DNA from: Verrucomicrobiia bacterium
Lineage (GTDB): Bacteria; Verrucomicrobiota; Verrucomicrobiia; Chthoniobacterales; UBA6821
Assembly: GCA_026398175.1 (NCBI GenBank)
Contig: JAPLTJ010000121.1
Location: forward strand, 3,357-67,356
Direction: 5' to 3'
DNA: 64,000 nt
Below are positions 3,107-48,140 of this stretch, in pieces. The stretch's first letter is position 1. Every line of letters starts with the position of its first letter. Under the pieces are notes generated by a model that saw nothing but the letters and a program-made list of their open reading frames with translations, did no database searches and had not been told where the DNA came from. Made by a program: the position numbers and the translations under genes.

Positions 3107-3115
3107 AATCATTGC

Positions 3116-3411
3116 TGTCCAAAATAAATATTTCAAAATAAAAAAACGCTACACCTAGACGTCATTCCTGCGAAGGCAGGAAAGAGGGGGCTGTGGATCT
3201 TTATTTTTGTTTTCGCAAAAGTGGCATGATTTCACAAAAGGAAGAAATGCTTTCTTCGAAAAAAGAATTGAGACTTTATTTTAAGCGATCATCAAGTCTG
3301 TGCCGATAGTCGCTGGATTCCAGCGTCCGCTGGAATGACGGTAATGTGTAAATGTAGGCAGAATGTGGTTAGCCAGGCCCTTTCTTCTGTTGGTAGATTT
3401 TATTTTGGACA
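3116..3411 (+). mobile_element. MITE-like repeat, copy 2
   Basis: Same termini. The first palindrome is the variant TTCCTGCGAAGGCAGGAA (3158-3186) and the second is canonical (3315-3341). Confidence 0.75.
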
Positions 3412-3538
3412 AGAGTGACAGGTAATACTACTTGAAGAAAATTTTTTAGTCATTATCGTCAGATTCAGGTATTCTATCAGGATCATTCAAGATGTCGCTG
3501 ATCAAAGTTGGCTGCAATGATGCTCGGCTTTGTGGTTG

Positions 3539-8315: not shown

Positions 8316-8564
8316 ATGCAAATGGTTTTAACAATGACAGAGCGTGGCATTATTTCTCTGCCTAAAAAAATAAGGACTGTTTTAGGTCTTCATGGAAATG
8401 ATCATTTGATTGCTGAGGTAACATCTCAAGGTCTTCTCCTGAAGCAGGCTGTTACGCTTCCTGTCGAGATATATCAAGATGCTCGTGTTCGAGAGTTTGA
8501 TGAAGCTGAAGCAGAGCTTGCTGCCATATTAAAAGCAAAAAAAAAGAAAACAGATCGTAGTTAA
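8316..8564 (+). CDS. AbrB/MazE/SpoVT-type antitoxin
   Basis: Small protein with a SpoVT-AbrB-like N-terminus (ISLPKKIRTVLGL). It lies 12 nt upstream of a PIN gene. Confidence 0.7.
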   Translation: MQMVLTMTERGIISLPKKIRTVLGLHGNDHLIAEVTSQGLLLKQAVTLPVEIYQDARVREFDEAEAELAAILKAKKKKTDRS

Positions 8565-8576: not shown

Positions 8577-8984
8577 ATGAAGATTTTTCTCGACGCCAAT
8601 ATTTTGTTTTCAGCTGCAAAATCAAATGGAGCGATTCGTTTTTTAATCATGAGCCTGCTTGATAAAGAGCATCAGCTTGTAATTAATCTGTTTGTTCAAG
8701 AGGAGGCCGAACGCAATTTAACTGCAAAAGCGCCAGAAGCATTAGAATATTTTTACGATTTGATATTGCGGCTTACGATTGTTCCTTTAACGAACTATCA
8801 GTTGCTGCCCAAAAAGGCTTCGTTTTTGCCACTCAAAGATCAGCCAGTACTTCAAGCTGCACTTCATGATCGTTGTGATGTCTTGCTAACTGGAGATCGA
8901 ACTCATTTTGGAAGATTATATGGTGAGAGAATCGAAAGTCTTGCTGTTTATTCTCCAGGTGCTTTAGCTGATTTAATTTTATAG
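8577..8984 (+). CDS. PIN-domain toxin (VapC-like)
   Basis: Has N-terminal FLDANIL with an acidic residue and C-terminal LLTGDRTHF. The size is typical of a PIN toxin. Confidence 0.75.
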   Translation: MKIFLDANILFSAAKSNGAIRFLIMSLLDKEHQLVINLFVQEEAERNLTAKAPEALEYFYDLILRLTIVPLTNYQLLPKKASFLPLKDQPVLQAALHDRCDVLLTGDRTHFGRLYGERIESLAVYSPGALADLIL

Positions 8985-14443: not shown

Positions 14444-14510
14444 ATTCGCAGGGATGGAAGTAGATAAGAAAAAGAATTTACAGGGATGGAAGCGATGGAA
14501 GGGATACTGG
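14444..14510 (+). repeat. Purine-rich arm(s) after the helicase stop (two sub-copies)
   Basis: ATTCGCAGGGATGGAAGTAGATAAG and ATTTACAGGGATGGAAGCGATGGAAGGGATACTGG. Confidence 0.8.
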
Positions 14511-14605: not shown

Positions 14606-14637
14606 CAATCCCTTCCATCGCTTCTATCCCTGTGAAT
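14606..14637 (+). repeat. Complementary pyrimidine-rich arm covering the esterase GTG start
   Basis: CAATCCCTTCCATCGCTTCTATCCCTGTGAAT pairs with 14478-14507 (26 WC + 2 G.U of 30, hand count). Confidence 0.8.
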
Positions 14638-16377
14638 TTCTTCTCGCTTCTGTCTTCTGTTGTTGTTGCCAGCTTCTTGCTAGCGACAGCACACGCCGAC
14701 GTGACAATGCCAGCGATCTTTGGAGATCATATGGTGATGCAACAAGGAACGTCATTGCCGATTTGGGGTGAGGCTGATCCAGGCGAGCGAGTAACAGTGA
14801 AATTTGTGGGACAACAAGCAATGACCACGGCAAGAAAAGATCGGCAATGGCGCGTGAACTTGCAAACGGTTTATCTGAGGAGTTCTCCAGATGTCTTGAT
14901 GGTTGATGGAAAAAATCATCTCGAATTTTCGGATGTGATCATGGGAGATGTCTGGCTCTGCTCCGGGCAATCTAATATGGCGTTTCCTTTGCGAGAAGCC
15001 GATGGAGGAGAGACGGCGATTATTCATGCTGAAGATGGCCAGTTGCGTTTTTTTGTTGTTCCTGAAAAGCAAGCTTTTCAACCTCAACATCAAATGGAAG
15101 GAAGTTGGGAGCGCTGCTCGCCAGAGGCTGCGGCAGGATTTTCTGCGATTGGTTATTTTTTTGGACGCGATCTTCGAATGGCAACTGGCATGCCCGTTGG
15201 ATTAATTGGAAGTTATTGCGGAGGCAGCTCAGCGCAAGCGTGGATGAGTCTTCCTGCGCTTCAGCAGTCACCTTCTTTCAGTCATTATCTTGCAGAATAT
15301 TATCAGGGCGCCCGTGATTTTTCAAAAAATCAGGACACTTATTCTCAGCGAAAAATGGATTATGAGCAAGAGCTAGCTGCCTGGGAAGAGCAGGTAGGAA
15401 CGCCCTATCAAGAAGAACTGGCAACTTGGAAACTCAAATGCAAAGAGGCTTGTTCAAAACTTTGGGCGCAGCCATTAAAACCAGATCCACTTTCGCAAAA
15501 ACCAACACCTCCTTTGCCGCCAGACGGAGGTGTTACGGCGCCAACACTGCTTTTCAATGCTATGATTGCCCCGTTGATTCCGTATGCCATGACCGGTGTG
15601 ATTTGGTATCAGGGAGAGTCTAATGAGAATAGGAAATCTCAGCATTCTTGGATGGCTCAATTTGAGAATAATAGTGTTGACAGCACCGTTTTTTCAGTTT
15701 TTGAATACCGACGTCTTTTTCAACGGTTGATTCGTTCATGGCGTGTAGCTTGGGGAGAGGGACCATTCCCTTTTTATTTTGTGAGTTTAGCTGGATTCCG
15801 TAAGTCAACGTTCGATCCTGTCGAAATGTTGATGGATGATGAAGGGGGCTTGAATCCTTGTTGGGCTTGGTTGCGCGAGGGTCAAGCCGTCGCGCTCTCA
15901 CTGCCTGAGACAGGGATGGCAGTGGCTACTGATATTGGCAATCCTAACGATATTCATCCCAAGGATAAACTTGATGTGGGACGGCGGTTGGCATTGCTCG
16001 CGCGGAAAAATCTTTACGGTCAACAAGTCGTAGCGAGTGGTCCGACTTATTGTTCGATGAAACAAGAAGAGAAAAAAATTCGTCTGACATTTAACGATGT
16101 TGGCAAAGGCCTGACTGTTGCAGCTCCGCCGTGGCGGTATGATGGGACGATCGTGATGCCGCTTTCCCTTCAAGGTTTTGCCATTGCAGGAGACGATCGT
16201 CATTGGTACGACGCTGTTGCTCTCATTGAAGGAAGTGATATCATCGTCTCCAGCGAGTTTGTTTTAAAACCAACAGCGGTTCGTTACAATTGGAAAGATA
16301 ATCCCACGGGCAACCTCTACAACAAAGAGGGATTGCCTGCGGCGTCATTTAGAACGGATTTGGATCAACCGAAGTAA
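14632..16377 (+). CDS. Sialate O-acetylesterase (SASA/SGNH-like) family protein, secreted
   Basis: The GTG start gives the signal peptide MNFFSLLSSVVVASFLLATAHA. GDVWLCSGQSNM is the esterase nucleophile motif. Confidence 0.8.
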   Translation: MNFFSLLSSVVVASFLLATAHADVTMPAIFGDHMVMQQGTSLPIWGEADPGERVTVKFVGQQAMTTARKDRQWRVNLQTVYLRSSPDVLMVDGKNHLEFSDVIMGDVWLCSGQSNMAFPLREADGGETAIIHAEDGQLRFFVVPEKQAFQPQHQMEGSWERCSPEAAAGFSAIGYFFGRDLRMATGMPVGLIGSYCGGSSAQAWMSLPALQQSPSFSHYLAEYYQGARDFSKNQDTYSQRKMDYEQELAAWEEQVGTPYQEELATWKLKCKEACSKLWAQPLKPDPLSQKPTPPLPPDGGVTAPTLLFNAMIAPLIPYAMTGVIWYQGESNENRKSQHSWMAQFENNSVDSTVFSVFEYRRLFQRLIRSWRVAWGEGPFPFYFVSLAGFRKSTFDPVEMLMDDEGGLNPCWAWLREGQAVALSLPETGMAVATDIGNPNDIHPKDKLDVGRRLALLARKNLYGQQVVASGPTYCSMKQEEKKIRLTFNDVGKGLTVAAPPWRYDGTIVMPLSLQGFAIAGDDRHWYDAVALIEGSDIIVSSEFVLKPTAVRYNWKDNPTGNLYNKEGLPAASFRTDLDQPK

Positions 16378-19747: not shown

Positions 19748-19776
19748 TTGACATTGCCGTTTGTATCAGTTAGCAC
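19748..19776 (+). promoter_or_regulatory. Candidate promoter of TA cassette A (TTGACA-N17-TAGCAC, 6 nt before the ATG)
   Basis: The same geometry recurs at cassettes B and C. Confidence 0.45.
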
Positions 19777-19782
19777 TACGAC

Positions 19783-19974
19783 ATGATGATGACTGAACAA
19801 CACACTGCAACTTTAGTGCAATCAAATACAAAAGAATGCGATTCCTTTGATGGCGCTAGTTATAAGGCTGAGTTAATTGCTGCAATTGAGGAGTCAAGAG
19901 CTGCAATAAGACGAGGAGAATTTTTCACCCTTGAGGAAATTGAAAAAGAAATTCCTTCATGGATTATCGGATAA
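19783..19974 (+). CDS. Antitoxin of ParE-type TA cassette A
   Basis: Small acidic protein that overlaps the toxin start by 16 nt. Its C-terminal motif AAIEE..A.IRRGEF.TLEEI.KE..SW is shared with cassettes B and C. Confidence 0.75.
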   Translation: MMMTEQHTATLVQSNTKECDSFDGASYKAELIAAIEESRAAIRRGEFFTLEEIEKEIPSWIIG

Positions 19975-20255
19975 TCTTGTCTCCTTCGGCTCGACGCGAT
20001 CTTAGAAATATCATTCATTATATTTCTCTTGATTCCCGTATAGCAGCTGAGCGTTTTGCAGTATTTCTGAGTTCAAGAACTCAAATACTTAAAAAGCATC
20101 CTGAAATAGGACGTGTTTTTCCTGAGGTTGGAGACGTTAGAATAAGGGAAATTATTGTGAAGAGTTATCGAGTGATTTACGAAATCAATTTTTTGAAAAA
20201 GCAAATTGAAATTCATCACTATTGGCACGCAGCTCGAGGGACTCCTGAAATTTAA
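19959..20255 (+). CDS. RelE/ParE-family toxin (cassette A)
   Basis: 98 aa with SPSARRDLRNI, HPEIGR, YRVIYE and the ParE-typical HYWHAARG. Confidence 0.85.
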   Translation: MDYRIILSPSARRDLRNIIHYISLDSRIAAERFAVFLSSRTQILKKHPEIGRVFPEVGDVRIREIIVKSYRVIYEINFLKKQIEIHHYWHAARGTPEI

Positions 20256-20260
20256 AATTC

Positions 20261-20938
20261 ATGAACCTCATTCTCTTTGATCTCGATCATACCTTGTTGA
20301 ACGGTGACACTCAAAGCGAGTGGGGATGTTACTTGGCTGACCGTGGTGTTATTGATCTTGCGGCTTATCAAGAAGCGATGGCTGTTTTTGATGAGACCTA
20401 TCATCGAGGAGCATTGGATATTCGAGCGTTGGTGGAGTTCCAGATTAAAATTTTAAAACCATATTCTCTTCCAACGCTCCATGCGTGGAGTGAAGAATTT
20501 GTGCAGGAGCGGATTCGTCCGTTGCTTGTCGAAGCTGGATGGAAAGCCATTGCTGAGCACAAAAAACAAGGGGATGAACTGGTTCTGATTACGGCAACAA
20601 ATGAATTTCTGACGACACCCATCGCGAAGCTCTTAGGTATTCAGCATTTGATTGCCTCTCAAGAAGAGTATGATGCTCAGGGAAACCTCACAGGATTTTT
20701 TTGTGGCATTCCCTCTTATCGTGAGGGAAAAGTAACGCGCTTTCATCAATGGTTGAAAGAACAAGGCCGAAAGAGAAGTGATTACAACAAGATTTTATTT
20801 TATAGTGACTCTCATAATGACCTTCCTCTTCTTTCTCTTGTTGATGAGCCGATCATCGTGAATCCTGATTCACACCTGCGAGAGCATGCCTTCAAAAACA
20901 AATGGAAGATTGTTGACTTTGGAATTCAACGAAGATAA
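20261..20938 (+). CDS. HAD-IB family hydrolase (SerB-like phosphatase)
   Basis: Motif I FDLDHTLL, a cap domain, and the downstream motif YSDSHNDLPLL. Confidence 0.85.
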   Translation: MNLILFDLDHTLLNGDTQSEWGCYLADRGVIDLAAYQEAMAVFDETYHRGALDIRALVEFQIKILKPYSLPTLHAWSEEFVQERIRPLLVEAGWKAIAEHKKQGDELVLITATNEFLTTPIAKLLGIQHLIASQEEYDAQGNLTGFFCGIPSYREGKVTRFHQWLKEQGRKRSDYNKILFYSDSHNDLPLLSLVDEPIIVNPDSHLREHAFKNKWKIVDFGIQRR

Positions 20939-21155
20939 TTATTGAGGTCCTAGCTTTTCTCTTCCGTTGACAATAGAATTGTAATTTTCCAATCCTGCTC
21001 TGTCCAATTTTGTTGGATCTTCAACGCATTACGTATTAGTGCGTGTTTCAGGATGACCTCTTCTGCACCAGCAGCCCTGCTGTCCAAGCTCTGTTCTGGC
21101 TGACTGAATTTTCCGTTCAACCACTTTTTCTGTTCCTTGATGGAGCATTGTCTCT

Positions 21156-22913
21156 ATGAATCTTCCTAAAAAAGTTTTTCCTTTTATTTTTTATTTTGTC
21201 CGTCAGCAATGGATCAAGTTTTTCATTGCCGTTGTCGCTTCTGCCTGCTGGGGAGCATACAGTTCTTTTTTTCCTTGTTTGCTAAAGCGTCTCATTAATG
21301 TGCTCGATTCTCATGAGATGACAGCGTTAGAAATTAATGCTGCTGCGGCAAAGGTGATTGGGCTCATCGTCTTTCTTTGGCTTGGGAGTCAACTCTTGTT
21401 GAGAGTTCAAGGGATGTTGTTCAGTATCCATTTTTGTGCAAGATTTCGAGCAAATATTCGAGAGGCCCTTTTTAATTACGTTCAAACACATTCCTCTTCT
21501 TATTTTGCGAATAATTTTTCTGGAACCATTGCCAGCAAAATATCAGATGTACCCACGAGCTGTGAAACGATGCTGATGAGTATCTGTTTTGAATTTACAT
21601 CAGCCATCATCATGGCTCTGGTGGTGATCGTTACGATGTGGATTAGTCATCCTCTTTTTGCTGGATTGCTAATTTTATGGCTCGTGCTCCATTTTTTAAT
21701 AACGTTTCTTTTTCTCAAAAAAGGAAATGTCTTGCTGGGGTACCACGCCAGTGCTGTGACAACACTTTCTGGAAAGATTGTTGATGTTTTCACAAACATT
21801 CAAAGCATGAAGCTCTTTGCTCGTGAAAAGTACGAACGCCATTATCTGCGTCATTTTCAAAATGAGGAAAGCAAATGCTCCAAGCAAGCTTATGGCTTTT
21901 TAGAGTGGATGCAGATGGTTTTTTTCTTCAATCAGACTTTTTTAATGTTTGGAATGCTCTTTCTTTTAATGAGAGGGTGGCAGCACCATTCTGTGAGTCT
22001 TGGAGATTTCACGCAGATTATGATGCAGGCTTTTTGGTTATCAGGGTGGATGTGGTATGTGAGTTACCAAATGAGATTTTTTATTAAGAATGCAGCAATC
22101 GTAGGCTCTGCTCTTTCACTCATTCAACAACCGCATGATGTCGTAGACGTTCCAGGTGCAGACTCATTAAAAGTTTCACGAGGAGAAATCTGTTTTGATG
22201 ACGTGAGCTTTTCTTATCATCAACAACCTATTTTTCAAAAGCTCAACGTGACGATTCATGCTGGCGAAAAAGTGGGGATTGTGGGCCTGTCGGGAGCGGG
22301 TAAAACAACTTTCATGAATCTTATCTTGAGGCTTTATGAGTTGAATGCTGGAAAAATTTTAATCGATGATCAATCGATCGCAGATGTCACGCAGCAATCG
22401 CTGCATGAAAACATTGCGGTCATTCCGCAAGAGCCACTCCTTTTTCATCGTACCTTGATGGAAAATATTCGCTATGGGCGCCTGGAAGCCGCTGATGAAG
22501 AGGTTCTCAAGGCATCTCAGCAGGCTCATTGCCACGAATTTGTTGAGGATCTCTCCGAAAAGTATGAAACGCTCGTGGGAGAGCGCGGAACCAAGCTTTC
22601 TGGAGGTCAACGTCAGCGCATTGCGATTGCACGAGCGTTGTTGAAAGATGCACCTATCCTTATTTTAGATGAAGCCACTTCATCGCTTGATTCGATGACG
22701 GAGAAAAAAATTCAAGAAGGATTGCATTCTTTGATGCGTGGTAGAACTACGATCGTGATTGCTCATCGTCTCTCAACGCTCGCTGCTATGGATCGTATTT
22801 TGGTTTTTCATGAGGGCACCATTGTTGAAGATGGGACCATTCAAGAGTTGCTTCACAAAGGAAATCATTTTGCGGCACTCTGGAAAATGCAGCAGCAAGA
22901 TCATGGAGATTGA
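21156..22913 (+). CDS. ABC exporter, fused permease/ATPase (MsbA-like)
   Basis: Six TM segments in the N-terminal half. Walker A GLSGAGKTT, signature LSGGQRQR and Walker B LILDEATS. Confidence 0.9.
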   Translation: MNLPKKVFPFIFYFVRQQWIKFFIAVVASACWGAYSSFFPCLLKRLINVLDSHEMTALEINAAAAKVIGLIVFLWLGSQLLLRVQGMLFSIHFCARFRANIREALFNYVQTHSSSYFANNFSGTIASKISDVPTSCETMLMSICFEFTSAIIMALVVIVTMWISHPLFAGLLILWLVLHFLITFLFLKKGNVLLGYHASAVTTLSGKIVDVFTNIQSMKLFAREKYERHYLRHFQNEESKCSKQAYGFLEWMQMVFFFNQTFLMFGMLFLLMRGWQHHSVSLGDFTQIMMQAFWLSGWMWYVSYQMRFFIKNAAIVGSALSLIQQPHDVVDVPGADSLKVSRGEICFDDVSFSYHQQPIFQKLNVTIHAGEKVGIVGLSGAGKTTFMNLILRLYELNAGKILIDDQSIADVTQQSLHENIAVIPQEPLLFHRTLMENIRYGRLEAADEEVLKASQQAHCHEFVEDLSEKYETLVGERGTKLSGGQRQRIAIARALLKDAPILILDEATSSLDSMTEKKIQEGLHSLMRGRTTIVIAHRLSTLAAMDRILVFHEGTIVEDGTIQELLHKGNHFAALWKMQQQDHGD

Positions 22914-22938
22914 CATGCTATAAAAGATCTGTTAGTAC
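22910..22938 (+). promoter_or_regulatory. Candidate promoter of TA cassette B (TTGACA-N17-TAGTAC)
   Basis: The TGA stop of the ABC gene (22911-22913) lies inside the TTGACA hexamer. The -10-like element ends 6 nt before the ATG. Confidence 0.45.
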
Positions 22939-22944
22939 GAATAC

Positions 22945-23151
22945 ATGATGATGACTAAACTAGAAACAACAGAAAAAATCGAAAATCGTTTTCTAGTAGG
23001 TCAGCCATGCGAAGATGACTCTATCGATGCTGCTGACTATCAAAAGAAATTTATTGCGGCAGTTGAGGAGGGGTTGGCTGAGCTTGATCGCGGAGAGTTT
23101 GTTACTCTTGAAGAAATTAAAAAAGAATTTTCTTCATGGGGTACGAGATAA
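22945..23151 (+). CDS. Antitoxin of ParE-type TA cassette B
   Basis: Paralog of 19783..19974, with a 16-nt overlap with its toxin. Confidence 0.75.
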   Translation: MMMTKLETTEKIENRFLVGQPCEDDSIDAADYQKKFIAAVEEGLAELDRGEFVTLEEIKKEFSSWGTR

Positions 23152-23432
23152 TTTTTTCTCCTCGAGCTCAACGCGACCTCAGAAATATTAAGCGTTATAT
23201 TTCTGTTTACTCTTTTCAAGTGGCAGAACGTTTCTGTCAAAAGCTTGTAGCAAAAACAGAGGTGCTTGAAGTTCATCCAGAGATAGGACGCATGGTTCCT
23301 AGTTTTGCTAGTCGTTCATTGCGAGAAATTATTGTTGGAAATTATCGGGTGATTTATAGAGTTGATCTTTTGGCTAAACAAATTGAAATTATTCGCTATT
23401 GGCACGCTGCACGAGGAATTCCTGAAATTTGA
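23136..23432 (+). CDS. RelE/ParE-family toxin (cassette B)
   Basis: Paralog of 19959..20255 (SPRAQRDLRNI, HPEIGR, YRVIYR, RYWHAARG). Confidence 0.85.
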   Translation: MGYEIIFSPRAQRDLRNIKRYISVYSFQVAERFCQKLVAKTEVLEVHPEIGRMVPSFASRSLREIIVGNYRVIYRVDLLAKQIEIIRYWHAARGIPEI

Positions 23433-23498
23433 AGATGTGCAGCAAGATTCTTTGTTTGAAGGTTGTTCATCTGGATAGCCAGGTGCTAAGCTGATCGG

Positions 23499-24266
23499 AT
23501 GAAATGTGTCATTTTAGCAGGTGGCCTTGGAACCCGCATTAGCGAAGAGACGGTGCTCAAGCCAAAACCAATGGTAGAAATCGGAGGGAAACCCCTTCTT
23601 TGGCATGTGATGAAAATTTATTCCGCACATGGTATTAACGACTTCATTATCTGTGCTGGCTACAAGGGATATTTGATCAAAGAATATTTTGCTAACTATT
23701 TTCTGCACATGTCAGATGTTACTTTTGACATCAAAGAAAATAGTATGGAGGTTCATGAGCGTTATGCTGAGCCATGGAAAGTGACCGTTGTGGATACGGG
23801 AGAGGAGACGATGACAGGAGGGCGTTTAAAAAAAGTGGCTCGTTATCTGGGAACCGAGACGTTTTGTATGACCTATGGTGATGGAGTGGGAGATGTTGAT
23901 ATTACAAAAGTTTTAGAAGCACATCGACGAGGAAAGCGTAAAGCCACGATCACCGCAGTGCAGCCACCTGGGCGCTTTGGAGCGTTGCACCTAGAACACG
24001 ATACCGTTACTCATTTTATTGAAAAGCCAGAGGGTGATGGAGCCTGGATTAATGGGGGATTTTTTGTTTTAGAGCCAGAGGTGCTCTCCTACATTGAGCA
24101 TGATCAAATAATTTGGGAGCGAGAGCCTCTTCAAAGATTGGCAAAAGAAAAAGAATTGAATTCCTACCAACATCATGGTTTTTGGCAGCCGATGGACAGC
24201 CTTCGTGACAAGCAACTCCTCGAACAGCTGTGGAATAAGGGGCAGGCTCCTTGGAAAATTTGGTAA
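23499..24266 (+). CDS. rfbF: Glucose-1-phosphate cytidylyltransferase
   Basis: [34 protein letters not shown], and the length and C-terminus are typical of RfbF/DdhA. Confidence 0.93.
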
Positions 24267-24316
24267 GAAGAAATTTAACCGCGAAATACGCGAAAAAACG
24301 TAATCAACATCACTGG

Positions 24317-24606
24317 TGTCCAAAATAAAATTACTCGCATGCTATGCGTATGACTTTTCTGAAAAAGCAGGAGTATCTTATTTCAGTGCTACTCAGCAAT
24401 CCTAGTAACCGTCATTCCAGCGGACGCTGGAATCCAGGCGAAGGTCAATTCAGATTTGATCGCTAGCGTCAAAAAAATTAAAATAATTAGTAAGGATGAG
24501 AAAATACTTTTACGAAAACAAAAATAAAGATCGCCTCCTCGCGGAGGCGAGGACCCAGAAGAGACCACCAACCAGCGTCCGCTGGAATGACGGTGGTGTA
24601 GCTGGA
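24317..24606 (-). mobile_element. MITE-like repeat, copy 3 (diverged; one terminus missing), between rfbF and rfbG
   Basis: TGTCCAAAATAAAA at 24317. Palindromes at 24411-24437 and 24573-24592, plus an extra hairpin CGCCTCC-TCGC-GGAGGCG at 24531-24548. The centre matches copy 4. Confidence 0.65.
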
Positions 24607-24836
24607 ATCTGGCTAGTGGCGATTTTTCTTTTTTTGATGAATATACCTTTCACGAATGATTTTTAGGAATTTCTGCTTGTTTCTTTTTCCTCTGGCTGTG
24701 TTACCCTCGCTGACGTTATGTACGCATAGCGCTGCGCTCGGTCGCCTTGCCAGAGAAAAAAGCTCCAGCGCATAATTGTCCTAAAAATCATCCGCAAAAG
24801 GTATACGTTAGTACGAATTTAGCGGTTTGTTATTTT

Positions 24837-25961
24837 ATGATCTCACTTCATTCCCAGCTTTCTAATATCTACCGAGGCAAGAAAGTCTTTCTCACAGGCC
24901 ACACGGGCTTCAAAGGCTCATGGCTGGCTGAGTGGCTCTTGCAGCTGGGGGCAGAAGTGCACGGCTATGCTTTAGAGCCAGCGACAACGTCAGCACTATT
25001 TCATCAGTTGGATCTGGCCTCGCGATTGCATCATCAAGCAGGAGATATTCGGAATGCCTCATTGCTGAGAGAATCGATTTTATCTTTTTATCCTGATTTT
25101 GTTTTTCATTTAGCTGCTCAGCCGCTTGTGCGCTATTCGTACCAGGAGCCGCTTGAAACTTACGAGACCAATGTCATGGGGACGTTGCATGTTCTCGAAG
25201 CCTTACGCGAGCTTCAAAAAAATTCTTCTCATCGCATTGCTGCGGTGATGGTCACCACCGATAAATGTTATGAGAATAAGGAGGATCAGACTGCTTATCA
25301 CGAAGATCATCCTCTCGGCGGACATGATCCTTACAGCTCGAGCAAAGCGATGGCTGAAATTGGAACAGCAGCCTATCGGCGTTCTTATTTTTCTAACACT
25401 AGTTCTAATTTCTCTGCCGTGCATGTCGCTACAGCTCGTGCTGGCAATGTGATTGGTGGGGGAGATTGGGCAGATGATCGTATTATTCCCGATGCGATTC
25501 GTGCTTTAGAAAAAAAAGAACCGATCCTTGTTCGCAATCCTTCTTCCGTAAGGCCTTGGCAGCATGTTCTGGAGCCGCTCTGCGGGTATTTGATGTTGGG
25601 GGCTCAACTCATGCAAGATCGGGAATTGGCGGGAGCTTTTAATTTTGGGCCTGACCCAAAAGAAAACTATTCTGTTTCCAATGTGGTGACCGAAGTGCTT
25701 CTCCATTGGCCAGGCTCTTGGAAAGATGTTAGCGACCCTATTGCGCCGCATGAAGCAAAACATCTCAATCTCTCCATTAAAAAAGCTATTGAGCTTTTAG
25801 GGTGGCGTCCTGTTTGGGATTTCAAAAAAACCATAGCTCAAACCATCGAGTGGTATCGCTTGCATCATGAAGATCCTAAAACTGCACGTGTATTAACCCA
25901 GGAGCAGATTTTTTCTTACGAAGAGGCTGCAGGGATCGCCTTAAAAACTGAAATTTCATGA
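24837..25961 (+). CDS. rfbG: CDP-glucose 4,6-dehydratase
   Basis: GKKVFLTGHTGFKGSWL, the YSSSK catalytic motif and RPWQHVLEP. The start was chosen at ATG 24837 because the track ORF extends into non-coding repeat DNA. Confidence 0.92.
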   Translation: MISLHSQLSNIYRGKKVFLTGHTGFKGSWLAEWLLQLGAEVHGYALEPATTSALFHQLDLASRLHHQAGDIRNASLLRESILSFYPDFVFHLAAQPLVRYSYQEPLETYETNVMGTLHVLEALRELQKNSSHRIAAVMVTTDKCYENKEDQTAYHEDHPLGGHDPYSSSKAMAEIGTAAYRRSYFSNTSSNFSAVHVATARAGNVIGGGDWADDRIIPDAIRALEKKEPILVRNPSSVRPWQHVLEPLCGYLMLGAQLMQDRELAGAFNFGPDPKENYSVSNVVTEVLLHWPGSWKDVSDPIAPHEAKHLNLSIKKAIELLGWRPVWDFKKTIAQTIEWYRLHHEDPKTARVLTQEQIFSYEEAAGIALKTEIS

Positions 25962-27451
25962 ACTCAAAAGCAATCGAACTTAAAAAAGAAATTCTGCGTC
26001 TCACGCGAGAGTATTCCTCGCTCACCCATCAGGCCAATTTGCCAGCATGGGAGAGAGCGTCTGATTTTATTCCTGGTGAAACCATGATTCCGTATGCAGG
26101 TCGCGTTTTTGATTTCAACGAAGTCGAGGCTGCTGTCGGAAGCACGCTCGATTTTTGGCTGACGCTGGGAAAAGAGGGGGAAGCTTTTGAAAAAGAGTTT
26201 GCTGCTTTTCTTGGAGTTAAACATACGCTCTTGGTGAACTCCGGATCGTCAGCAAATTTGGTGGCGCTTTCAGCACTGACGACCCACAAACTCCCTTCGC
26301 ATCAGCGTTTGCAGCCTGGAGATGAAGTCATCACCGTGGCAGCTGGTTTTCCAACGACGGTGGCTCCGATCATTCAGCTAGGAGCAGTTCCTGTTTTTCT
26401 CGATAACAATCCTGCAACTGGAAACATGAATGTTGCGTTGTTAGAAAAAGCTTTTTGTGAAGGAAAAACAAAAGCAGTGATGATGGCTCACGCTCTCGGA
26501 AATCCTTTTGATCTAGGAACCGTCTTGGAATTTTGTCGTCGTCACAGTCTCTGGTTGATCGAGGATAATTGCGACTCACTCGGTTCCACCTATTCAATGC
26601 CCCTTGAGCGCGCAAAAAAATTGGGCATTACTGAAAATTCTCCAGGCATTCCGTTTGATGGAAAAAATATCACGCGGTACACCGGAACATGGGGTGACCT
26701 TTCAACGCAATCTTTTTATCCACCGCACCATCTCACGATGGGAGAGGGAGGTGCCGTAAATATTATCTCACGTCCACCGCTCAAGTCCTATGCAGAGAGC
26801 TTTCGTGATTGGGGGCGTGATTGTTGGTGTGCTTCCGGCAAGGACAATACCTGCAACAAACGCTTCTGTTGGCAGCTGGGCGAATTGCCAAAGGGATACG
26901 ATCACAAATATATTTATAGCCATCTCGGCTACAATTTGAAGCCGCTTGATCCTCAAGCTGCGATCGGACGTCAGCAGCTCAAGAAGCTACCTGCTTTTGT
27001 GGAGGCGCGGAAAAAAAATTGGGAGATCTTGCGCGCAGGCCTTGCTGATTTAGAAAAGTTTTTTGAGTTTTCTTTGCCGACCCATGCAACCGCTTGGAAT
27101 CAAGATGTCACTTTCGATTGGGATGATTCTGGATGTCAGGCTGACTGCTCTTGGTTTGGATTTATGCTGCGCGTCAAATCAACAGCTCCTTTTTCTCACA
27201 CTGACTTTGCGCGTTATCTCGAAGAGAAAAAAATTGGAACGCGGATGTTTTTTGGAGGAAACTTGTTGCGACAACCAGCATTCGTGCAGTTGAAGAAAGA
27301 TTGTCCTGAGGCCTTGCGTGTCTTGGGAAGCCTCGCTGGAGCTGATGACATCATGAACAGTGCACTTTTTTTAGGAACTTATCCTGGATTGACGCAAGCG
27401 ATGTTGGAGTATGAAATTAAGATGATTCATGAGTTTTGCCTTCCTTCTTGA
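25958..27451 (+). CDS. rfbH: CDP-4-keto-6-deoxy-D-glucose 3-dehydrase (E1; DegT/DnrJ/EryC1 family)
   Basis: ATGA overlap with rfbG. RfbH-type N-terminus, NSGSSANL, the DNCDSLGS region and a Cys-rich segment (CWCASGKDNTCNKRFC). Confidence 0.88.
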   Translation: MNSKAIELKKEILRLTREYSSLTHQANLPAWERASDFIPGETMIPYAGRVFDFNEVEAAVGSTLDFWLTLGKEGEAFEKEFAAFLGVKHTLLVNSGSSANLVALSALTTHKLPSHQRLQPGDEVITVAAGFPTTVAPIIQLGAVPVFLDNNPATGNMNVALLEKAFCEGKTKAVMMAHALGNPFDLGTVLEFCRRHSLWLIEDNCDSLGSTYSMPLERAKKLGITENSPGIPFDGKNITRYTGTWGDLSTQSFYPPHHLTMGEGGAVNIISRPPLKSYAESFRDWGRDCWCASGKDNTCNKRFCWQLGELPKGYDHKYIYSHLGYNLKPLDPQAAIGRQQLKKLPAFVEARKKNWEILRAGLADLEKFFEFSLPTHATAWNQDVTFDWDDSGCQADCSWFGFMLRVKSTAPFSHTDFARYLEEKKIGTRMFFGGNLLRQPAFVQLKKDCPEALRVLGSLAGADDIMNSALFLGTYPGLTQAMLEYEIKMIHEFCLPS

Positions 27452-27476
27452 CTATAAAAACTTAATCTGTTAGGCC
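27448..27476 (+). promoter_or_regulatory. Candidate promoter of TA cassette C (TTGACT-N17-TAGGCC)
   Basis: The TGA stop of rfbH (27449-27451) lies inside the -35-like hexamer. The spacing to the ATG is the same as in A and B. Confidence 0.45.
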
Positions 27477-27482
27477 TTTTTT

Positions 27483-27683
27483 ATGATCACTCAACAACCG
27501 CCGCCGCATACTTCCAGTTCTCATTTGGCAGAGGCTTCTTGTGAAGATCTTTCCTTCGATTCTATTCCCTATGATGTAGAGCTCGTAGCAGCTATTGAAG
27601 AGGCTCGGGCTGAGATTAGACGTGGAGAATTTATTACACACGAAGAACTTGAAAAAGAATTCTATTCATGGTTTTTCGAATAA
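27483..27683 (+). CDS. Antitoxin of ParE-type TA cassette C
   Basis: Paralog of the A and B antitoxins, with a 16-nt overlap with its toxin. Confidence 0.75.
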   Translation: MITQQPPPHTSSSHLAEASCEDLSFDSIPYDVELVAAIEEARAEIRRGEFITHEELEKEFYSWFFE

Positions 27684-27967
27684 TTGTCTCTCCCGGAGCA
27701 AGGCGTGATCTTAGAGGGATTCAACGTTATATTTCTATTGATTCGCCTCAAGCAGCTCTACGCTTTGGTCAACGACTTCTGAAAAAACAAGAAATGCTTG
27801 GAAGTCATCCTGAAATAGGACGTGTCGTTCCTGAAATAGGTAATCGAGCGGTACGAGAGCTTATTGTTGGAAATTATCGATTGATTTATGAAGTCAATTT
27901 TTTGAACAAGGAGATTGAAATATTTCGCTACTGGCACGCTGCTCGAGGGATTCCAAAGATCCGTTGA
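27668..27967 (+). CDS. RelE/ParE-family toxin (cassette C)
   Basis: Paralog of the A and B toxins (SPGARRDLRGI, HPEIGR, YRLIYE, RYWHAARG). Confidence 0.85.
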   Translation: MVFRIIVSPGARRDLRGIQRYISIDSPQAALRFGQRLLKKQEMLGSHPEIGRVVPEIGNRAVRELIVGNYRLIYEVNFLNKEIEIFRYWHAARGIPKIR

Positions 27968-27974
27968 TATACTC

Positions 27975-29177
27975 ATGACGAATAAAAAAAACATTGTTCC
28001 GCCACTTCTGCAGGAAGATCTCGAGCATGTCTTAACACACACGAAGCCCCTCTGGGAGCAGGTGCGGGGAGGTCGGATTTTTGTGACGGGGGCAACAGGA
28101 TTTTTTGGAACTTGGTTGCTAGAAACTTTTTTGTATGCCAATGACCAATTGAAATTAGGAGCAGAGCTTGTGGGGCTCAGTCGTAATTCTGCTGCATTTG
28201 CTGCAAAGGCGCCTCACATCGTCAATCATCCAGCGATTACAATGCATGCTGGTGATGTGCGTGATTTTATTTTTCCTAACCCGACTTTCACTATTCGAGA
28301 TGGCGATCTTTCTCAATATACTCGGCCTCAAAACGATTTTTTAAATCATTCATGTATGAAACATACACCGCATGATTTTAAAAATGATTTTGAGACCAAG
28401 TCCTCACAAAATCTCATCCATTCGAATAGCGAAAGTCGGGTAGGAAAATTTTCTCATGTGATTCATGCAGGCACAACTTCCAGTGCGCCCGTGCCGCCGC
28501 TAGAAATGCTGGAGACGATTACCCGAGGAACACGGCGAGCGCTTGATTTTGCGGTCGCTTGTGAAGCAAAGCGATTTCTTTTTGTCAGCTCTGGCGCTGT
28601 TTATGGTGACGCACGCTCAGAGCAACATCATTTTTCCGAAGAAGACCACGCGGCTCCCGATCCCATGAATTCTGCCTCTGCGTATGGCGAGGGAAAGCGA
28701 TTCGCTGAGCTGCTGTGCCGACTTTATCATGACAACCATCAGCTGGAGACGACGATTGCGCGCTGTTTTGCCTTTGTTGGACCGCATTTGCCACTCAATG
28801 CTCATTTTGCGATTGGGAATTTTTTACGCGATGCTTTAGAAAAAAAACCGATCGTGATCAAGAGCGATGGTCAGTCGCAGCGTTCCTACCTCTACGCTGC
28901 GGATCTGATGATTTGGCTCTGGACAATTCTTTTTAAAGGCCAGCCTTGCCGTCCATACAATGTCGGTTCGGAGCACGCGCTCACCATCAAGCAGCTAGCG
29001 GAAAAAGTTCACGACACACTACAACTCAAGGAAAAGGTGCAAATCGGAACCGGTGGTAAAACTTCATGCTACGTCCCTGACACAACTAGGGCACACAAAG
29101 AATTAGGATTGCAAGAGTGGGTGACAATCGAGGAGAGTGTTCGGAAATGTTTTGATTGGGCTGCTGAAATTACTTAG
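27975..29177 (+). CDS. NAD-dependent epimerase/dehydratase (extended SDR), candidate 4-ketoreductase
   Basis: VTGATGFFGTWL Rossmann motif and YGEGK (YxxxK). A low-complexity insertion of about 60 aa sits between HAGDVRDF and HVIHAG. The start was moved to ATG 27975, downstream of the toxin stop. Confidence 0.8.
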   Translation: MTNKKNIVPPLLQEDLEHVLTHTKPLWEQVRGGRIFVTGATGFFGTWLLETFLYANDQLKLGAELVGLSRNSAAFAAKAPHIVNHPAITMHAGDVRDFIFPNPTFTIRDGDLSQYTRPQNDFLNHSCMKHTPHDFKNDFETKSSQNLIHSNSESRVGKFSHVIHAGTTSSAPVPPLEMLETITRGTRRALDFAVACEAKRFLFVSSGAVYGDARSEQHHFSEEDHAAPDPMNSASAYGEGKRFAELLCRLYHDNHQLETTIARCFAFVGPHLPLNAHFAIGNFLRDALEKKPIVIKSDGQSQRSYLYAADLMIWLWTILFKGQPCRPYNVGSEHALTIKQLAEKVHDTLQLKEKVQIGTGGKTSCYVPDTTRAHKELGLQEWVTIEESVRKCFDWAAEIT

Positions 29178-30069
29178 CTAACTTACAAGCTATTTGAAAA
29201 ATGTAAGATGTGTTAGCTCCACCCCAAGCGTTCAATTTATTTAACGCAATAACATCAAAGCCGCAATTAGCTACTAGTCGACGTAGTGATTCTTCAGAAT
29301 AAAAATTGATATGCTCATGCCAATGGCGTTTTTTTAGTTGAAGCTCCATATCATCATTGGCATTTTGCATGATTTCTTCAAAGGGGACCTCAATATACAA
29401 TATTGTATTTGATTGCATAGCCTCTTTGATTTCTAAAAGTAAATCTGAGGGATAGGAGACGTGCTCTAGAACATGACTGCAGACAACAAGATCGTAAGTA
29501 GTTTTTGAAATTTCCTTTTTATCAACGAGCTTTGCACCTTCAATAGGTTGCTTGTTGTTGATTTCATAAATGTGCAATAGAGAGCTGTTGTTTTTAAAAG
29601 GAGTGTTTTTACCAGTATCTCCTCCCCAATCTAGTGTTTTTATAGGAGAAGTGAGAAAAGGAGAGAGGAACTTTTCTACTTGGTCTATATAAGTAACTCC
29701 TCCAGTTAATGTCTCATTTCGTTTTTTATAACCTGGTTCATAATGTTCCCTTAATTCAGTATAGTCTTTTTCACGATATCCCTCGTAGAGTGATGAGAGC
29801 TCTCTCTCTGAAAACCGTACATCTAAAAAAAGGAAGCCACAACTTGGGCAAAAAGTTGAATGACATAATGCATAGGCCATTCCTGTTGGAATAGTCTTTA
29901 AGCCCCATGTTTCATCGATTTTTACTGGTGCTAATCCCAATGCACGATGAGAAATAAAAGGCATTAATAATGCCGGAGATTTTTTGAGAGCTGTATTATT
30001 ACAACAAACACAGGCGGTAGCTATTCGTTCTTTGCAAGTGGACATGGAAGTTTTTATAATTTCAGACAT
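29170..30069 (-). CDS. Class I SAM-dependent methyltransferase with an N-terminal Zn-ribbon (sugar C/O-methyltransferase-like)
   Basis: CxxC...CxxC (CVCCNN, CPSCGF), DWGGDTG, and the VCSHVLEHV motif. Confidence 0.75.
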   Translation of the reverse strand: MSEIIKTSMSTCKERIATACVCCNNTALKKSPALLMPFISHRALGLAPVKIDETWGLKTIPTGMAYALCHSTFCPSCGFLFLDVRFSERELSSLYEGYREKDYTELREHYEPGYKKRNETLTGGVTYIDQVEKFLSPFLTSPIKTLDWGGDTGKNTPFKNNSSLLHIYEINNKQPIEGAKLVDKKEISKTTYDLVVCSHVLEHVSYPSDLLLEIKEAMQSNTILYIEVPFEEIMQNANDDMELQLKKRHWHEHINFYSEESLRRLVANCGFDVIALNKLNAWGGANTSYIFQIACKLAK

Positions 30070-30187
30070 GAAAAATTGATTGAAAGTTCTTATCTGTCAA
30101 ACAACAAAAATATATTTTAATTGATTAAAGAGGATTTTTATTAATGATTTGTTTTTTACTTTCTTTCGATCAAAAACTTTTTAACCA

Positions 30188-31984
30188 ATGATACGGGTCG
30201 CTGATTACATTATTCAAAAATTAGCAGAGCATGGCATCAAAGATGTTTTCATGGTGACAGGGGGAGCTGCTATGCACCTCAATGATGCTTTTGGTCGCTC
30301 CTCTCAGATGAAAGTGACTTGTTGCCATCATGAGCAAGCCTGTGCGATGGCCGCGGAAAGTTATTTTCGTCTCACAAATCGCTTTGCTGCTGTCAACGTG
30401 ACAGCAGGACCTGGTGCCATCAATGCACTCAATGGAGTGTATGGAGCTCATGTTGACTCGATGGGAATGATTGTGATTTCTGGACAAGCAAAATGGGAGA
30501 CGCTTGTTCGCTCTACGGATTTGCCTCTGCGGCAACTCGGCGATCAGGAGGTTGATATCGTGCAGATGGTGAAGGGAATTACAAAATATGCAGTGGTTAT
30601 TCAAGATCCTAAAACGATTCGTTATCACTTAGAACGTGCTCTCTACTTGGCATCTCATGGGCGTCCTGGGCCGGTTTGGTTGGATGTTCCGATCAATGTT
30701 CAAGGAACCATGATTAATCCTGATCAACTTCAAGGTTACAATCCACAAGAAGATCAAATTAAATTTGAAACAAAAAATCTGAGAGAAGCGATTCAAAATA
30801 TTGTTCACGAGCTTTCATCGGCAAAACGCCCTGTCATCTATGCAGGGACAGGAATTCGTTTGTCAGAGCAGTATGAAGTTTTTCTTGAATTAATTAATCG
30901 CCTGAAAATTCCAGTGGTAACAGCATGGAATTCCAATGATCTTCTTCCTGATGATCACTCTTGTTATGCTGGGCGTCCAGGTTCTGTTGGAAATAGGGCA
31001 GGGAATTTTACCGTGCAGAATGCTGATTTTGTCTTGGTATTAGGATGTCGACTCAACCTCCGTTTAATTTCTTACAATTGGGAGAATTTTGCAAAGCAGG
31101 CAAAGATCGCGATGATTGACGTTGATGATGCTGAGTTAAAAAAGCCAACATTGAAAATAGATATTCCTGTTCATGCAGATTTGAGAGAAGCGTTGCCATT
31201 ATTGCTAGAGAAATCAGGCGAGTGGAAGTCGCATCATGAGGAGTGGCTGGCCTGGTGCCGAGAGCGACTGCAGCTCTATCCTGCGGTGACAGAAGCAATG
31301 AAAAATGATTCTAAGGGAGTGAATCCCTATTACTTTTTTGATAAGCTTTTTGCTCAGCTTGATGAAAATGAAATCATCGCTTGTGCTGATGGGACGGCTT
31401 CTGTAGCGGCAATGCAAGCTGCCATTATTAAACGAGGACAACGTCTTTTTCACAATTCAGGTTGTGCCTCGATGGGATATGATTTGCCTGCAGCAATTGG
31501 CGCAGCTCTGGGATGCCCTGATCGTAAGCGCATCATCTGCATCGCTGGAGATGGAAGTGTTATGATGAATCTTCAAGAATTACAGACAATTGTTCATGAG
31601 CACTTGCCGATAAAACTTTTTATTCTTAATAATCATGGGTATCACTCCATTCGACAGACACAGCAAAATTTTTTCTCAAATAATATTATTGGTTGTGATG
31701 TCGAGTCTGGAGTCAGTTTTCCTAATTTTGAGAAAATGGCAGGAGCATTTGGATTGCTTTATCGGAAGATTGACAAACATGCCGATATTGATGAGGCGAT
31801 CAGAAAAATTCTTTCTCAACCAGGTGCTATGATAACAGAAGTGATGCTAGACTTGCATCAAGCATTTGAACCCAAACTTTCTTCACGCAAATTAGAAGAT
31901 GGAACAATGGTGACTGCTAGCCTAGAAGATATGGCGCCATTTTTAGCACGAGAAGAATTAGGAAAAAATATGATTGCTTCTTAG
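30188..31984 (+). CDS. Thiamine-pyrophosphate enzyme of the acetolactate-synthase family (YerE-like candidate)
   Basis: N-terminal Pyr domain, a middle domain and a C-terminal PP domain with GDGSVMMNLQEL...NNHGY. Confidence 0.85.
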   Translation: MIRVADYIIQKLAEHGIKDVFMVTGGAAMHLNDAFGRSSQMKVTCCHHEQACAMAAESYFRLTNRFAAVNVTAGPGAINALNGVYGAHVDSMGMIVISGQAKWETLVRSTDLPLRQLGDQEVDIVQMVKGITKYAVVIQDPKTIRYHLERALYLASHGRPGPVWLDVPINVQGTMINPDQLQGYNPQEDQIKFETKNLREAIQNIVHELSSAKRPVIYAGTGIRLSEQYEVFLELINRLKIPVVTAWNSNDLLPDDHSCYAGRPGSVGNRAGNFTVQNADFVLVLGCRLNLRLISYNWENFAKQAKIAMIDVDDAELKKPTLKIDIPVHADLREALPLLLEKSGEWKSHHEEWLAWCRERLQLYPAVTEAMKNDSKGVNPYYFFDKLFAQLDENEIIACADGTASVAAMQAAIIKRGQRLFHNSGCASMGYDLPAAIGAALGCPDRKRIICIAGDGSVMMNLQELQTIVHEHLPIKLFILNNHGYHSIRQTQQNFFSNNIIGCDVESGVSFPNFEKMAGAFGLLYRKIDKHADIDEAIRKILSQPGAMITEVMLDLHQAFEPKLSSRKLEDGTMVTASLEDMAPFLAREELGKNMIAS

Positions 31985-39426: not shown

Positions 39427-40839
<1,413 letters not shown>

Positions 40840-40888
40840 AAAGAAGCATTAGCCACAAAGTAAAACAAAAAATATTTAGAAACACTCT

Positions 40889-41133
40889 TGTCCAAAATAC
40901 ACCAATCAATAGAAGAAAAGCAGCAACTAGCCACACCGCCATCATTCGAGCGGACGCTGGAATCCAGCGACTGACGATCTTTATTTTTGTTTTCGTAAAA
41001 GTGTTGTTTAATCCTCCTCAATCTTTTTAAATTTTTTTGACGCTACTACTCAAATGTGAATTGACCTTCACCTGGATTCCAGCGTCCGCTGGAATGACGG
41101 TTAATCGAGTTGTCAAATAGCATTGAAATAAGA
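40889..41133 (+). mobile_element. MITE-like repeat, copy 4 (3' terminus truncated), between sufB and sufD
   Basis: TGTCCAAAATAC at 40889. Palindromes at 40943-40966 and 41074-41100. The core GATCTTTATTTTTGTTTTCGTAAAAGTG is shared with all long copies. Confidence 0.65.
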
Positions 41134-41185
41134 TTTTCTTCTTCTTTCTTTTTTATTGTACGTTCTTCGTAGTTAATTTTTTTAT

Positions 41186-43524: not shown

Positions 43525-43740
43525 CAGGCAGGAGGCTACAGGCTGGAGGCTAGAAGAGAGGCTGAAGGCGGAGGGCTGAAGGCTGAAGGAAAAGCAATTT
43601 TGAGTTGCTAGTTTATGATTCATGCTAGTTTTCTTTGTGGGCATTCTTTTTTGCCATATAAGAATTGTTTTCCATTAAAATGCGAGAATATCAAACTAAG
43701 TTTTCTTCAGCCTTCAGTCTTCAGCCCTTAGCCTTCAGCC
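43525..43740 (-). repeat. Arm pair (CTTCAGC family) between hypothetical gene 43740..45455 and the MidA-like gene
   Basis: On the minus-strand RNA, GGCTGAAGGCTAAGGGCTGAAGACTGAAGG pairs with CCTTCAGCCTTCAGCCCTCCGCCTTCAGCC as 10 + 10 + 7 bp, separated by a 2x2 and a 1x1 mismatch. The spacer is about 115 nt. Confidence 0.8.
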
Positions 43741-47774: not shown

Positions 47775-47783
47775 AATCACTCT

Positions 47784-48084: not shown

Positions 48085-48108
48085 CCACTGAAGTGAAATA
48101 TGCTTTTT

Positions 48109-48140
48109 CCTTCAGTCTTCAGTCCTTAGCCTGTAACCTG
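48109..48140 (+). repeat. Arm (CTTCAG/CTGTAAC words), 5 nt upstream of the NUDIX-like gene
   Basis: CCTTCAGTCTTCAGTCCTTAGCCTGTAACCTG. The short partner ACTGAAG lies at 48087-48093. Confidence 0.65.

Follow-up and report, generated by a model that had tools for sequence, protein, structure and literature searches.

Described relatives of the cassettes

The closest described relatives of the genes discussed here are the ParDE toxin-antitoxin (TA) modules, such as ParDE1 of Caulobacter (structure 3KXE), ParDE3 of Mesorhizobium (5CEG and 6X0A), ParDE1 of Mycobacterium tuberculosis (8C24), and ParDE2 of Vibrio cholerae (7R5A). These are small chromosomal modules in which the antitoxin gene lies upstream of the toxin gene and overlaps it. 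The same organization is found in three gene pairs on a stretch of 64,000 nucleotides of contig JAPLTJ010000121.1 (hereafter called the window), and their toxins share family (PF05016) and fold (TM scores of 0.8-0.85) with those of ParDE. In contrast, the antitoxins lack a detectable ribbon-helix-helix or other DNA-binding domain and match neither ParD families nor ParD structures, and the pairs are not stand-alone modules but are embedded in biosynthetic operons. Probably, though far from certainly, they represent three intact type II addiction cassettes of a single family, which are lodged in operons for the synthesis of nucleotide sugars and are subject to selfish turnover.

A ParE antitoxin without DNA-binding motifs is already known, i.e., the PaaA2 protein of the paaR2-paaA2-parE2 system of Escherichia coli O157:H7 (5CW7), which is similarly short (63 aa) (PMC8630535). 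PaaA2 wraps the toxin with helices, and the antitoxins of the window are predicted to contain two C-terminal helices. The first gene of that operon, paaR2, is expressed from a leaderless transcript (PMC8630535). However, the cassettes of the window do not include a third, regulatory gene, their leader comprises only 35 nt, their antitoxins showed no similarity to PaaA2 in a PDB profile search, and their context is not a prophage.

The interspersion of TA cassettes with other genes is reminiscent of the V. cholerae superintegron, where scattered TA cassettes stabilize the array against deletion (PMC11551772). There too, multiple TA modules, including those of the ParE and RelE types, are interspersed co-directionally along accessory genes. 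However, attC sites are absent here, and only 5 and 7 nt separate the first and the third toxin gene, respectively, from the next start codon. At most of the positions that cassettes occupy in this and related genomes (hereafter called slots), the gaps measure 5-7 nt or the genes overlap, and at a few they measure 47-73 nt. The only flanking repeat is a 44-nt target duplication at slot 2, and no integron machinery was seen, although no search aimed at an integrase was made. Furthermore, the neighbors are pathway genes of conserved operons and not promoterless mobile cassettes. No description of TA cassettes in nucleotide-sugar operons was found in the literature, nor a direct precedent in O-antigen or Verrucomicrobial loci. 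The cassettes represent an unusual, well-documented genomic habit of a known kind of TA system and not a new mechanism.

The three cassettes and their toxins

The pairs are located on the + strand at positions 19783-20255, 22945-23432, and 27483-27967 (cassettes 1-3, with antitoxins A1-A3 and toxins T1-T3; Table 1). Pairwise identities in blastp are 58-62% for the toxins (E 1e-38 to 1e-44) and 41-51% for the antitoxins (E 1e-16 to 1e-18), and, judged by these alignments, the similarity among the pairs is far above chance. At the DNA level, the cassettes are ~70% identical to each other, and the similarity runs from 35 nt upstream of the antitoxin ATG to the toxin stop codon; a cassette is a unit of roughly 520 nt from the start of its leader to this stop. 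Antitoxin and toxin genes overlap by 16 nt in all three pairs. This shared overlap had been pointed out in an earlier reading of the DNA made without database searches (the sequence-only reading), but it is also present in nearly all of the 79 related loci that were fetched. As a trait of the whole family, it provides no evidence for a recent common origin or duplication of the three copies. A fourth copy was not found in the window by tblastn. Weak matches at 48638-48724 and 39844-39966, which lie within genes for a NUDIX protein and for SufB, respectively, were dismissed as chance.

All three toxins score well above the cut-off of 23 bits of the Pfam ParE_toxin family PF05016 (57.6, 63.4, and 66.5 bits for T1-T3). 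In a PDB profile search with 25 family members, the first match was 6x0a (E 1e-10), followed by 5cw7, 5ceg, and 3kxe, all of them ParE proteins, and RelE and YoeB matched only marginally. The AlphaFold2 (AF2) model of T1 (pLDDT 90) shows the element order strand, helix, helix, three strands. The top Foldseek matches of this model were all ParE structures, with TM scores of 0.80-0.85, and those to RelE, YoeB, and HigB (0.55-0.68) were clearly weaker. Only the NCBIfam model for RelE/StbE, TIGR02385, blurs the picture: T2 exceeds its cut-off of 27.9 bits (36.4 bits), whereas T1 (26.2 bits) and T3 (25.1 bits) remain below it. Considering Pfam, PDB profile, and predicted fold together, we accept the toxins as ParE-type, and DNA gyrase is presumed to be their target.

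Thus, the sequence-only reading, which had announced three paralogous ParE-type cassettes at these positions and had left the choice between ParE and RelE to HMM classification, is borne out by reading frames, blastp, Pfam, PDB profile, and fold, and every toxin motif that it quoted is indeed present. It had also placed the cassettes 5-66 nt upstream of, and co-directional with, biosynthetic genes. This agrees with gaps of 5, 66, and 7 nt between the toxin stop codons and the genes for a HAD-IB hydrolase, RfbF, and a short-chain dehydrogenase/reductase (SDR; ATG at 27975), respectively. The upstream neighbors are orf87, an MsbA-related ABC exporter gene, and rfbH. NCBIfam searches identified RfbF (TIGR02623, 458 bits), RfbG (TIGR02622, 467 bits), and RfbH (NF011936, 632 bits), and the identities of the exporter, the hydrolase, and the SDR were also verified.

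Antitoxins without a detectable DNA-binding domain

The antitoxins were said to share a C-terminal AAIEE..A.I.RGEF.T.EE..KE..SW motif. This applies to A1 and A3, but A2 deviates from it (AAVEEGLAELDRGEF). In the AF2 model of A3, the N-terminal 30 residues are disordered and are followed by two helices (residues 32-46 and 53-64). No DNA-binding or ParD family was matched in Pfam or NCBIfam by any of 38 members of the antitoxin family, and a profile of the family produced no match in the PDB, with no ParD up to an E value of 10. Sub-threshold matches to DUF2683 and to a TetR fragment in these searches were rejected as noise. The family comprises >4000 clusters of proteins of typically 61 aa, mostly without annotation. 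The Pfam family PF27535 (RelB3_C) occurs as a precomputed annotation only, on A2 and several antitoxins of the close relatives, in places flagged as weak; A1, A3, and most members of the >4000 clusters carry no Pfam annotation. Thus, as far as profiles and models can tell, the antitoxins are not ParD but belong to a large uncharacterized family without a detectable DNA-binding domain, and the module would be a type II TA system that lacks the usual autoregulatory domain. Binding and neutralization of the toxin by these proteins are predicted, indirectly, from the conserved C-terminal helices and from the retention of antitoxin genes where the toxin has been lost (see below). These observations bring into view a large family of ParE antitoxins that is as yet unstudied.

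Recurrent slots and distribution of the family

Exact copies of T3 were found on more than 20 lake-metagenome contigs, two of which (L001 and L002) reproduce the layout of the window, and the source lineage is a freshwater member of the Chthoniobacterales (Verrucomicrobiota). In related contigs, cassettes were found in about five slots, i.e., between an open reading frame and the HAD gene (slot 1), between the ABC exporter gene and rfbF (slot 2), between rfbH and the SDR gene (slot 3), between gmd and fcl (slot 4), and between Host_attach and rseP (slot 5). The first four directly precede genes of the glycan locus. In contig L025, which shows ~75% DNA identity to the window, slots 1, 2, and 3 are all occupied. 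Slot 3 is occupied in the window and in L018/L094, L017, L025, L041, and L097, and slot 4 in seven contigs, in which the identity of Gmd and Fcl was confirmed by NCBIfam and tblastn. Hence, the comparison indicates that the slots are stable over species-level divergence.

The same is not true for their occupants. Simple positional orthology had to be rejected, as the type of cassette found in slots 1, 2, 4, and 5 differs between close relatives. Only the slot-3 cassette tracks the species, with T3 orthologues that are 97-98% identical at the amino-acid level in L018/L094, 71% in L017, and 73% in L097. The segment at 27100-28000 of the window, containing the end of rfbH and cassette 3, is 95-100% identical to L094, and T3 shows a dS of about 0 in this comparison while that of the whole rfbH gene is 0.39, which suggests that the segment was recently transferred or swept between lineages.

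In a neighbor-joining tree, the toxins of the window fall into one clade with those of about ten related contigs; this is a single tree of 100-aa proteins without support values. All 17 non-redundant cassettes of this clade are co-directional with both neighbors, and their median upstream gap is 31 nt. In the wide family, by contrast, the downstream gene is co-directional in 35 of 62 cases, which equals the background level (57%), and the neighbors are housekeeping genes (dapD, aminotransferase and tRNA synthetase genes) without enrichment of sugar-nucleotide genes. Thus, embedding in operons and association with glycan genes are properties of this subclade only. A census of species-representative genomes yielded 361 relatives, mainly in Verrucomicrobiota and Pyrinomonadaceae, in a scan with two peptide patterns of incomplete metagenome-assembled genomes (MAGs) that missed at least one real copy, i.e., the one in slot 1 of JAIEQF01.

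The sequence-only reading had considered that the family might be scattered uniformly over the genome, without association with this locus. Three MAGs had two matches each. These copies belong to the rfb locus or to the gmd/fcl-rseP locus, except that one copy of DATEBV01 lies at a locus that could not be placed (L016). Thus, every close-clade copy that could be placed is confined to one of the about five slots, and such scatter was not found within the limits of this census of incomplete MAGs.

Insertion, replacement and decay

The closest species representative (L018/L094), in which the rfb genes are ~90% identical to those of the window, has no cassette in slot 2. There, rfbF comes immediately after the ABC exporter gene, whose product ends in ...KMQREGSTIDD. 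In L025, codons for KMQQEQQDSSIED and a stop, i.e., the ancestral C-terminus of the exporter, are still present immediately behind the slot-2 toxin gene, and the cassette is flanked by a 44-nt direct duplication of the 3' end of the ABC gene (z=5.7). Both copies can be recognized in the window as well, the right one in a decayed form (Table 1). Flanking direct repeats at all other slots did not exceed the background level. Hence, these alignments show what is evidently an insertion into slot 2 with target duplication.

Elsewhere, residents have been replaced. Sliding identity between the window and L094 amounts to 90-98% in the flanks of cassette 1, drops to 55-69% exactly over this cassette, and reaches 98-100% over cassette 3. 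The body of the L094 cassette in slot 1 is of type 2, its toxin being 80% identical to T2, and the swap has one junction ~21 nt inside the antitoxin gene and the other ~25 nt ahead of the toxin stop codon. Slot 4 gives a similar picture, with 90-99% identity in the flanking gmd and fcl genes but only 57-73% in the cassettes in between. Such free swapping of cassette bodies between slots fits selfish turnover better than a function specific to each module.

The location of the junctions within the conserved ends of the cassettes, together with the mosaic structure of the locus, could also mean that the cassettes serve as portable blocks of homology that promote the shuffling of glycan modules, with an effect that is mainly recombinational and not toxic. 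We assign very little probability to this explanation. What was exchanged are cassette bodies and not the flanking modules, and, with a DNA identity of only about 70%, the cassettes are a poor substrate for homologous recombination. Moreover, the other mosaic breakpoint is not located at a cassette: compared with L094, the ABC exporter gene is ~63% identical at 21156-22150 and 85-93% at 22150-22913, and this step indicates a recombination breakpoint inside the gene, near 22150, that is unrelated to the cassettes.

Rapid replacement within conserved flanks and presence/absence polymorphism are also features of defense hot spots, and the locus itself has a mosaic structure and varies downstream of the SDR gene. 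Thus, one could envisage that the cassettes are anti-phage modules acting by abortive infection, and that they turn over in an arms race with phages for which the surface glycan is the receptor. We regard this as very unlikely, however. None of the six cassette proteins matched a PADLOC-DB v2 defense model up to an E value of 0.1, and no other defense genes were recognized among the genes checked around the cassettes. Of 57 pattern matches on viral contigs, none was confirmed as a member of the family, and the wider family resides among housekeeping genes.

Incoming cassettes can also be stacked onto their predecessors. In L095 and L011, the antitoxin gene of the previous occupant survives as an orphan immediately before the incoming cassette, and the orphan reading frames extend into the leader of the latter. 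The orphan antitoxin of L095 is nearly identical to the resident antitoxin of L015. In L044, an intact antitoxin gene lies beside a truncated toxin gene. In every decayed cassette, the toxin is gone and the antitoxin is kept. This order of loss is as expected if the toxins are active.

These degenerate copies might be taken to indicate that the cassettes are inactive relics, i.e., non-toxic hitchhikers drifting along with the locus. Of all explanations considered, this one appears to us the least probable. The three pairs of the window consist of full-length reading frames in which the invariant toxin residues of the family are kept, and dN/dS values of 0.13-0.38 in all comparisons of TA genes show that these genes are, by this measure, under purifying selection. 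The relic explanation also sits uneasily with a leader that remained conserved among the paralogues although synonymous sites between them are near saturation (dS about 1); this conservation indicates that the leader motif itself is under selection as well.

Leader and transcription

Position 19748 is the first base of the conserved TTGACA with which the leader of cassette 1 begins. The 35-nt leaders of all three cassettes conform to the consensus TTGAC(A/T)-N17-TAGnnC-N6-ATG. The TTGAC sequence includes the TGA stop codon of the upstream gene in slots 2 and 3. The same geometry, CTTGAA-N17-CAnAnT-N6-7-ATG, is present at 67 more distant loci of the wide family. The leader does not contain a Shine-Dalgarno sequence, and its -10-like element ends 6-7 nt before the start codon. 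Thus, it resembles a sigma-70-type -35/-10 pair in the layout of a leaderless mRNA, from which promoter activity and a leaderless start are predicted. Predominantly leaderless TA transcripts have been reported in M. tuberculosis (PMC8485053). The cassettes also draw attention to a conserved promoter layout of the leaderless type.

No terminator-like structure was detected on the + strand at any cassette border. Hence, isolation of the cassettes by terminators, which the sequence-only reading had named as evidence against its proposals, was not observed. Co-transcription with the flanking genes, with read-through entering the cassettes from upstream and continuing into the downstream gene, appears likely.

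The sequence-only reading had offered two suggestions for the role of the cassettes, i.e., stabilization of each module, which is plausible and discussed below, and stress-coupled expression from TA promoters. According to the latter, the antitoxin is degraded under stress, which de-represses the TA promoter and induces the downstream glycan genes. It would explain why a promoter-like leader is conserved before every cassette, and it agrees with the absence of terminators and with gaps to the next gene that are very short or overlapping; furthermore, as the cassettes split pathways whose genes have to be co-expressed (gmd and fcl, rfbH and the SDR gene), transcription must either pass through them or restart. 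However, the parts required for de-repression are not visible: the antitoxin has no detectable DNA-binding domain or fold, and operator-like inverted repeats are not enriched in the leaders, where their arms are on average as long as in shuffled controls, for the wide family as well as for the close clade. Furthermore, the -10-like element of the clade lacks the final T, and occupants are interchangeable between slots. The survey of relatives for the same modules without a cassette, which had been proposed along with the suggestion, also speaks against it: rfbF in L094 and rseP in L095 are not preceded by a cassette, while their neighbors are 90-99% identical, and the downstream genes, thus, do not depend on one. 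Altogether, stress-coupled expression is not supported and is considered rather unlikely.

A related possibility is that a cassette acts as an anchor of the operon, i.e., as a portable internal promoter with a leaderless start, which is protected by addiction and specifically colonizes nucleotide-sugar operons (between gmd and fcl, rfbH and the SDR gene, or the ABC gene and rfbF). The host would rely on this anchor to express and retain its surface-glycan genes, and turnover would result from competition between cassettes, in which a newcomer displaces the old toxin and leaves the old antitoxin behind as an orphan. We consider this option quite improbable.

Probable addiction and its possible consequences

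According to the addiction reading, which we prefer, the cassettes would encode a ParE-type toxin, presumably a gyrase poison, and a minimal, ~61-68-aa antitoxin, which would bind the toxin via its two C-terminal helices without carrying a DNA-binding domain. Transcription would start at the antitoxin ATG under control of the cassette's own promoter-like leader, and, as no terminator follows, the cassette would be transcribed together with the flanking genes; additionally, it could supply these operons with internal transcription starts. In one subclade of freshwater Chthoniobacterales, the family would have colonized a few intergenic slots in co-directional operons for nucleotide-sugar and envelope functions. 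There, it would persist by addiction, since loss of the antitoxin would be lethal or costly, and, as a side effect, deletions spanning the adjacent glycan genes would be penalized. Replacement of occupants would occur by recombination in the conserved ends of the cassettes or with a new cassette being stacked onto the old antitoxin gene.

Several considerations weigh against this reading. As mentioned above, the final T, normally a requirement of sigma-70, is missing from the -10-like hexamer TAGnnC, a scan with a generic sigma-70 consensus did not call a promoter at these leaders, and the cassettes may be mainly expressed by read-through. Paralogues with similar antitoxin C-termini could neutralize each other's toxins, which would weaken addiction and any stabilizing effect. 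Any stabilization would be leaky, as seen from the mosaic structure of the locus and from the lack of a slot-2 cassette in the closest species representative. Finally, the incompleteness of the MAGs, the reliance of the census on two peptide patterns, and the tree of short proteins should be kept in mind.

If the proposed behavior holds, the locus would be a compact natural example of chromosomal TA cassettes that have settled within operons of essential pathways, such as in the gap from gmd to fcl or from rfbH to its partner reductase. The slots are fixed over species-level time, yet the occupants replace each other, and the toxin is lost before the antitoxin, which is the footprint that the addiction model predicts and which is rarely so cleanly visible in chromosomes. 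For Verrucomicrobial glycan loci, this would mean that small genes outside the sugar pathway probably shape the transcription of the pathway and its resistance to deletion.

Coordinates and other features of the window

Table 1. Positions of the cassettes and of associated features, numbered from the first base of the window or, where indicated, of the related contig.
Feature	Position	Strand	Evidence or remark
Leader of cassette 1, TTGACA-N17-TAGCAC-N6	19748..19782	+	Abuts antitoxin ATG; conserved across clade, homologous to family-wide motif
Antitoxin A1, 63 aa	19783..19974	+	C-terminal motif present; no Pfam or NCBIfam match
ParE-type toxin T1, 98 aa	19959..20255	+	PF05016, E 2e-15; AF2 pLDDT 90, ParE structures are top fold matches
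Left copy of duplicated ABC-exporter 3' end	22883..22913	+	C-terminus ...KMQQQDHGD; TGA stop within TTGACA of cassette 2
Leader of cassette 2, TTGACA-N17-TAGTAC-N6-ATG	22910..22944	+	ABC TGA stop within TTGACA
Antitoxin A2, 68 aa	22945..23151	+	Precomputed Pfam PF27535 RelB3_C on identical protein in L001
ParE-type toxin T2, 98 aa	23136..23432	+	PF05016, E 3e-17; TIGR02385, 36.4 bits
Decayed right copy of ancestral ABC 3' end	23430..23472	+	Target duplication, z=2.4 in the window
Leader of cassette 3, TTGACT-N17-TAGGCC-N6-ATG	27448..27482	+	rfbH TGA stop within TTGACT
Antitoxin A3, 66 aa	27483..27683	+	AF2: residues 1-30 disordered, helices 32-46 and 53-64
ParE-type toxin T3, 99 aa	27668..27967	+	PF05016, E 3e-18; same-slot orthologues in relatives
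Remnants of earlier occupants of the gmd-fcl region	L011 2496-2714, L095 6044-6250, L044 9017-9320	n/a	Two orphan antitoxins, one truncated toxin
MITE/REP-like repeat copies	2226-2556, 3107-3427, 24292-24600, 40880-41150, 47775-48110, 55320-55460	n/a	Palindromic, ~150-330 nt

The genes at 23499-31984 encode RfbF, RfbG, RfbH, the SDR, and a thiamine diphosphate (ThDP)-dependent, acetolactate-synthase-like enzyme, which scored below all equivalog cut-offs. This gene set suggests a pathway for a CDP-3,6-dideoxyhexose, possibly a branched-chain sugar of the yersiniose type. Farther downstream, the window encodes a NeuB-family protein, a GT2 glycosyltransferase, an FkbM methyltransferase, and a YfhO-like membrane protein besides the ThDP enzyme. 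Downstream of the SDR gene (from 29170 in the window and from 11387 in L094), the gene content of the two is completely different: the window encodes a methyltransferase, the ThDP enzyme, NeuB, GT2, and FkbM, and L094 encodes NeuB, a hydrolase, an SDR, a ThDP enzyme, an AP endonuclease-like protein, and others. Such variation is typical of a hypervariable glycan locus.

An unrelated TA system of a second type is located on the + strand, with a MazE/AbrB-type antitoxin (PF04014) at 8316-8564 followed by a PIN-domain toxin (PF13470) at 8577-8984, in a VapBC-like arrangement.

The window also contains several repeats. Palindromic sequences of ~150-330 nt, resembling miniature inverted-repeat transposable elements (MITE) or repetitive extragenic palindromes (REP), share the core GTCATTCCAGCGGACGCTGGAAT and have inverted TTTATTTTGGAC ends (Table 1). 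One copy lies in the glycan operon, where it separates rfbF from rfbG. A 66-nt match to the family is present in the relative L016. Short direct repeats rich in CTTCAG are present at 43698-43745 and 48096-48143. Finally, a pair of 38-nt inverted repeats, 102 nt apart, is located at 14468-14505 and 14608-14645, and a 27-nt motif of this pair recurs at 18891 and 39304.

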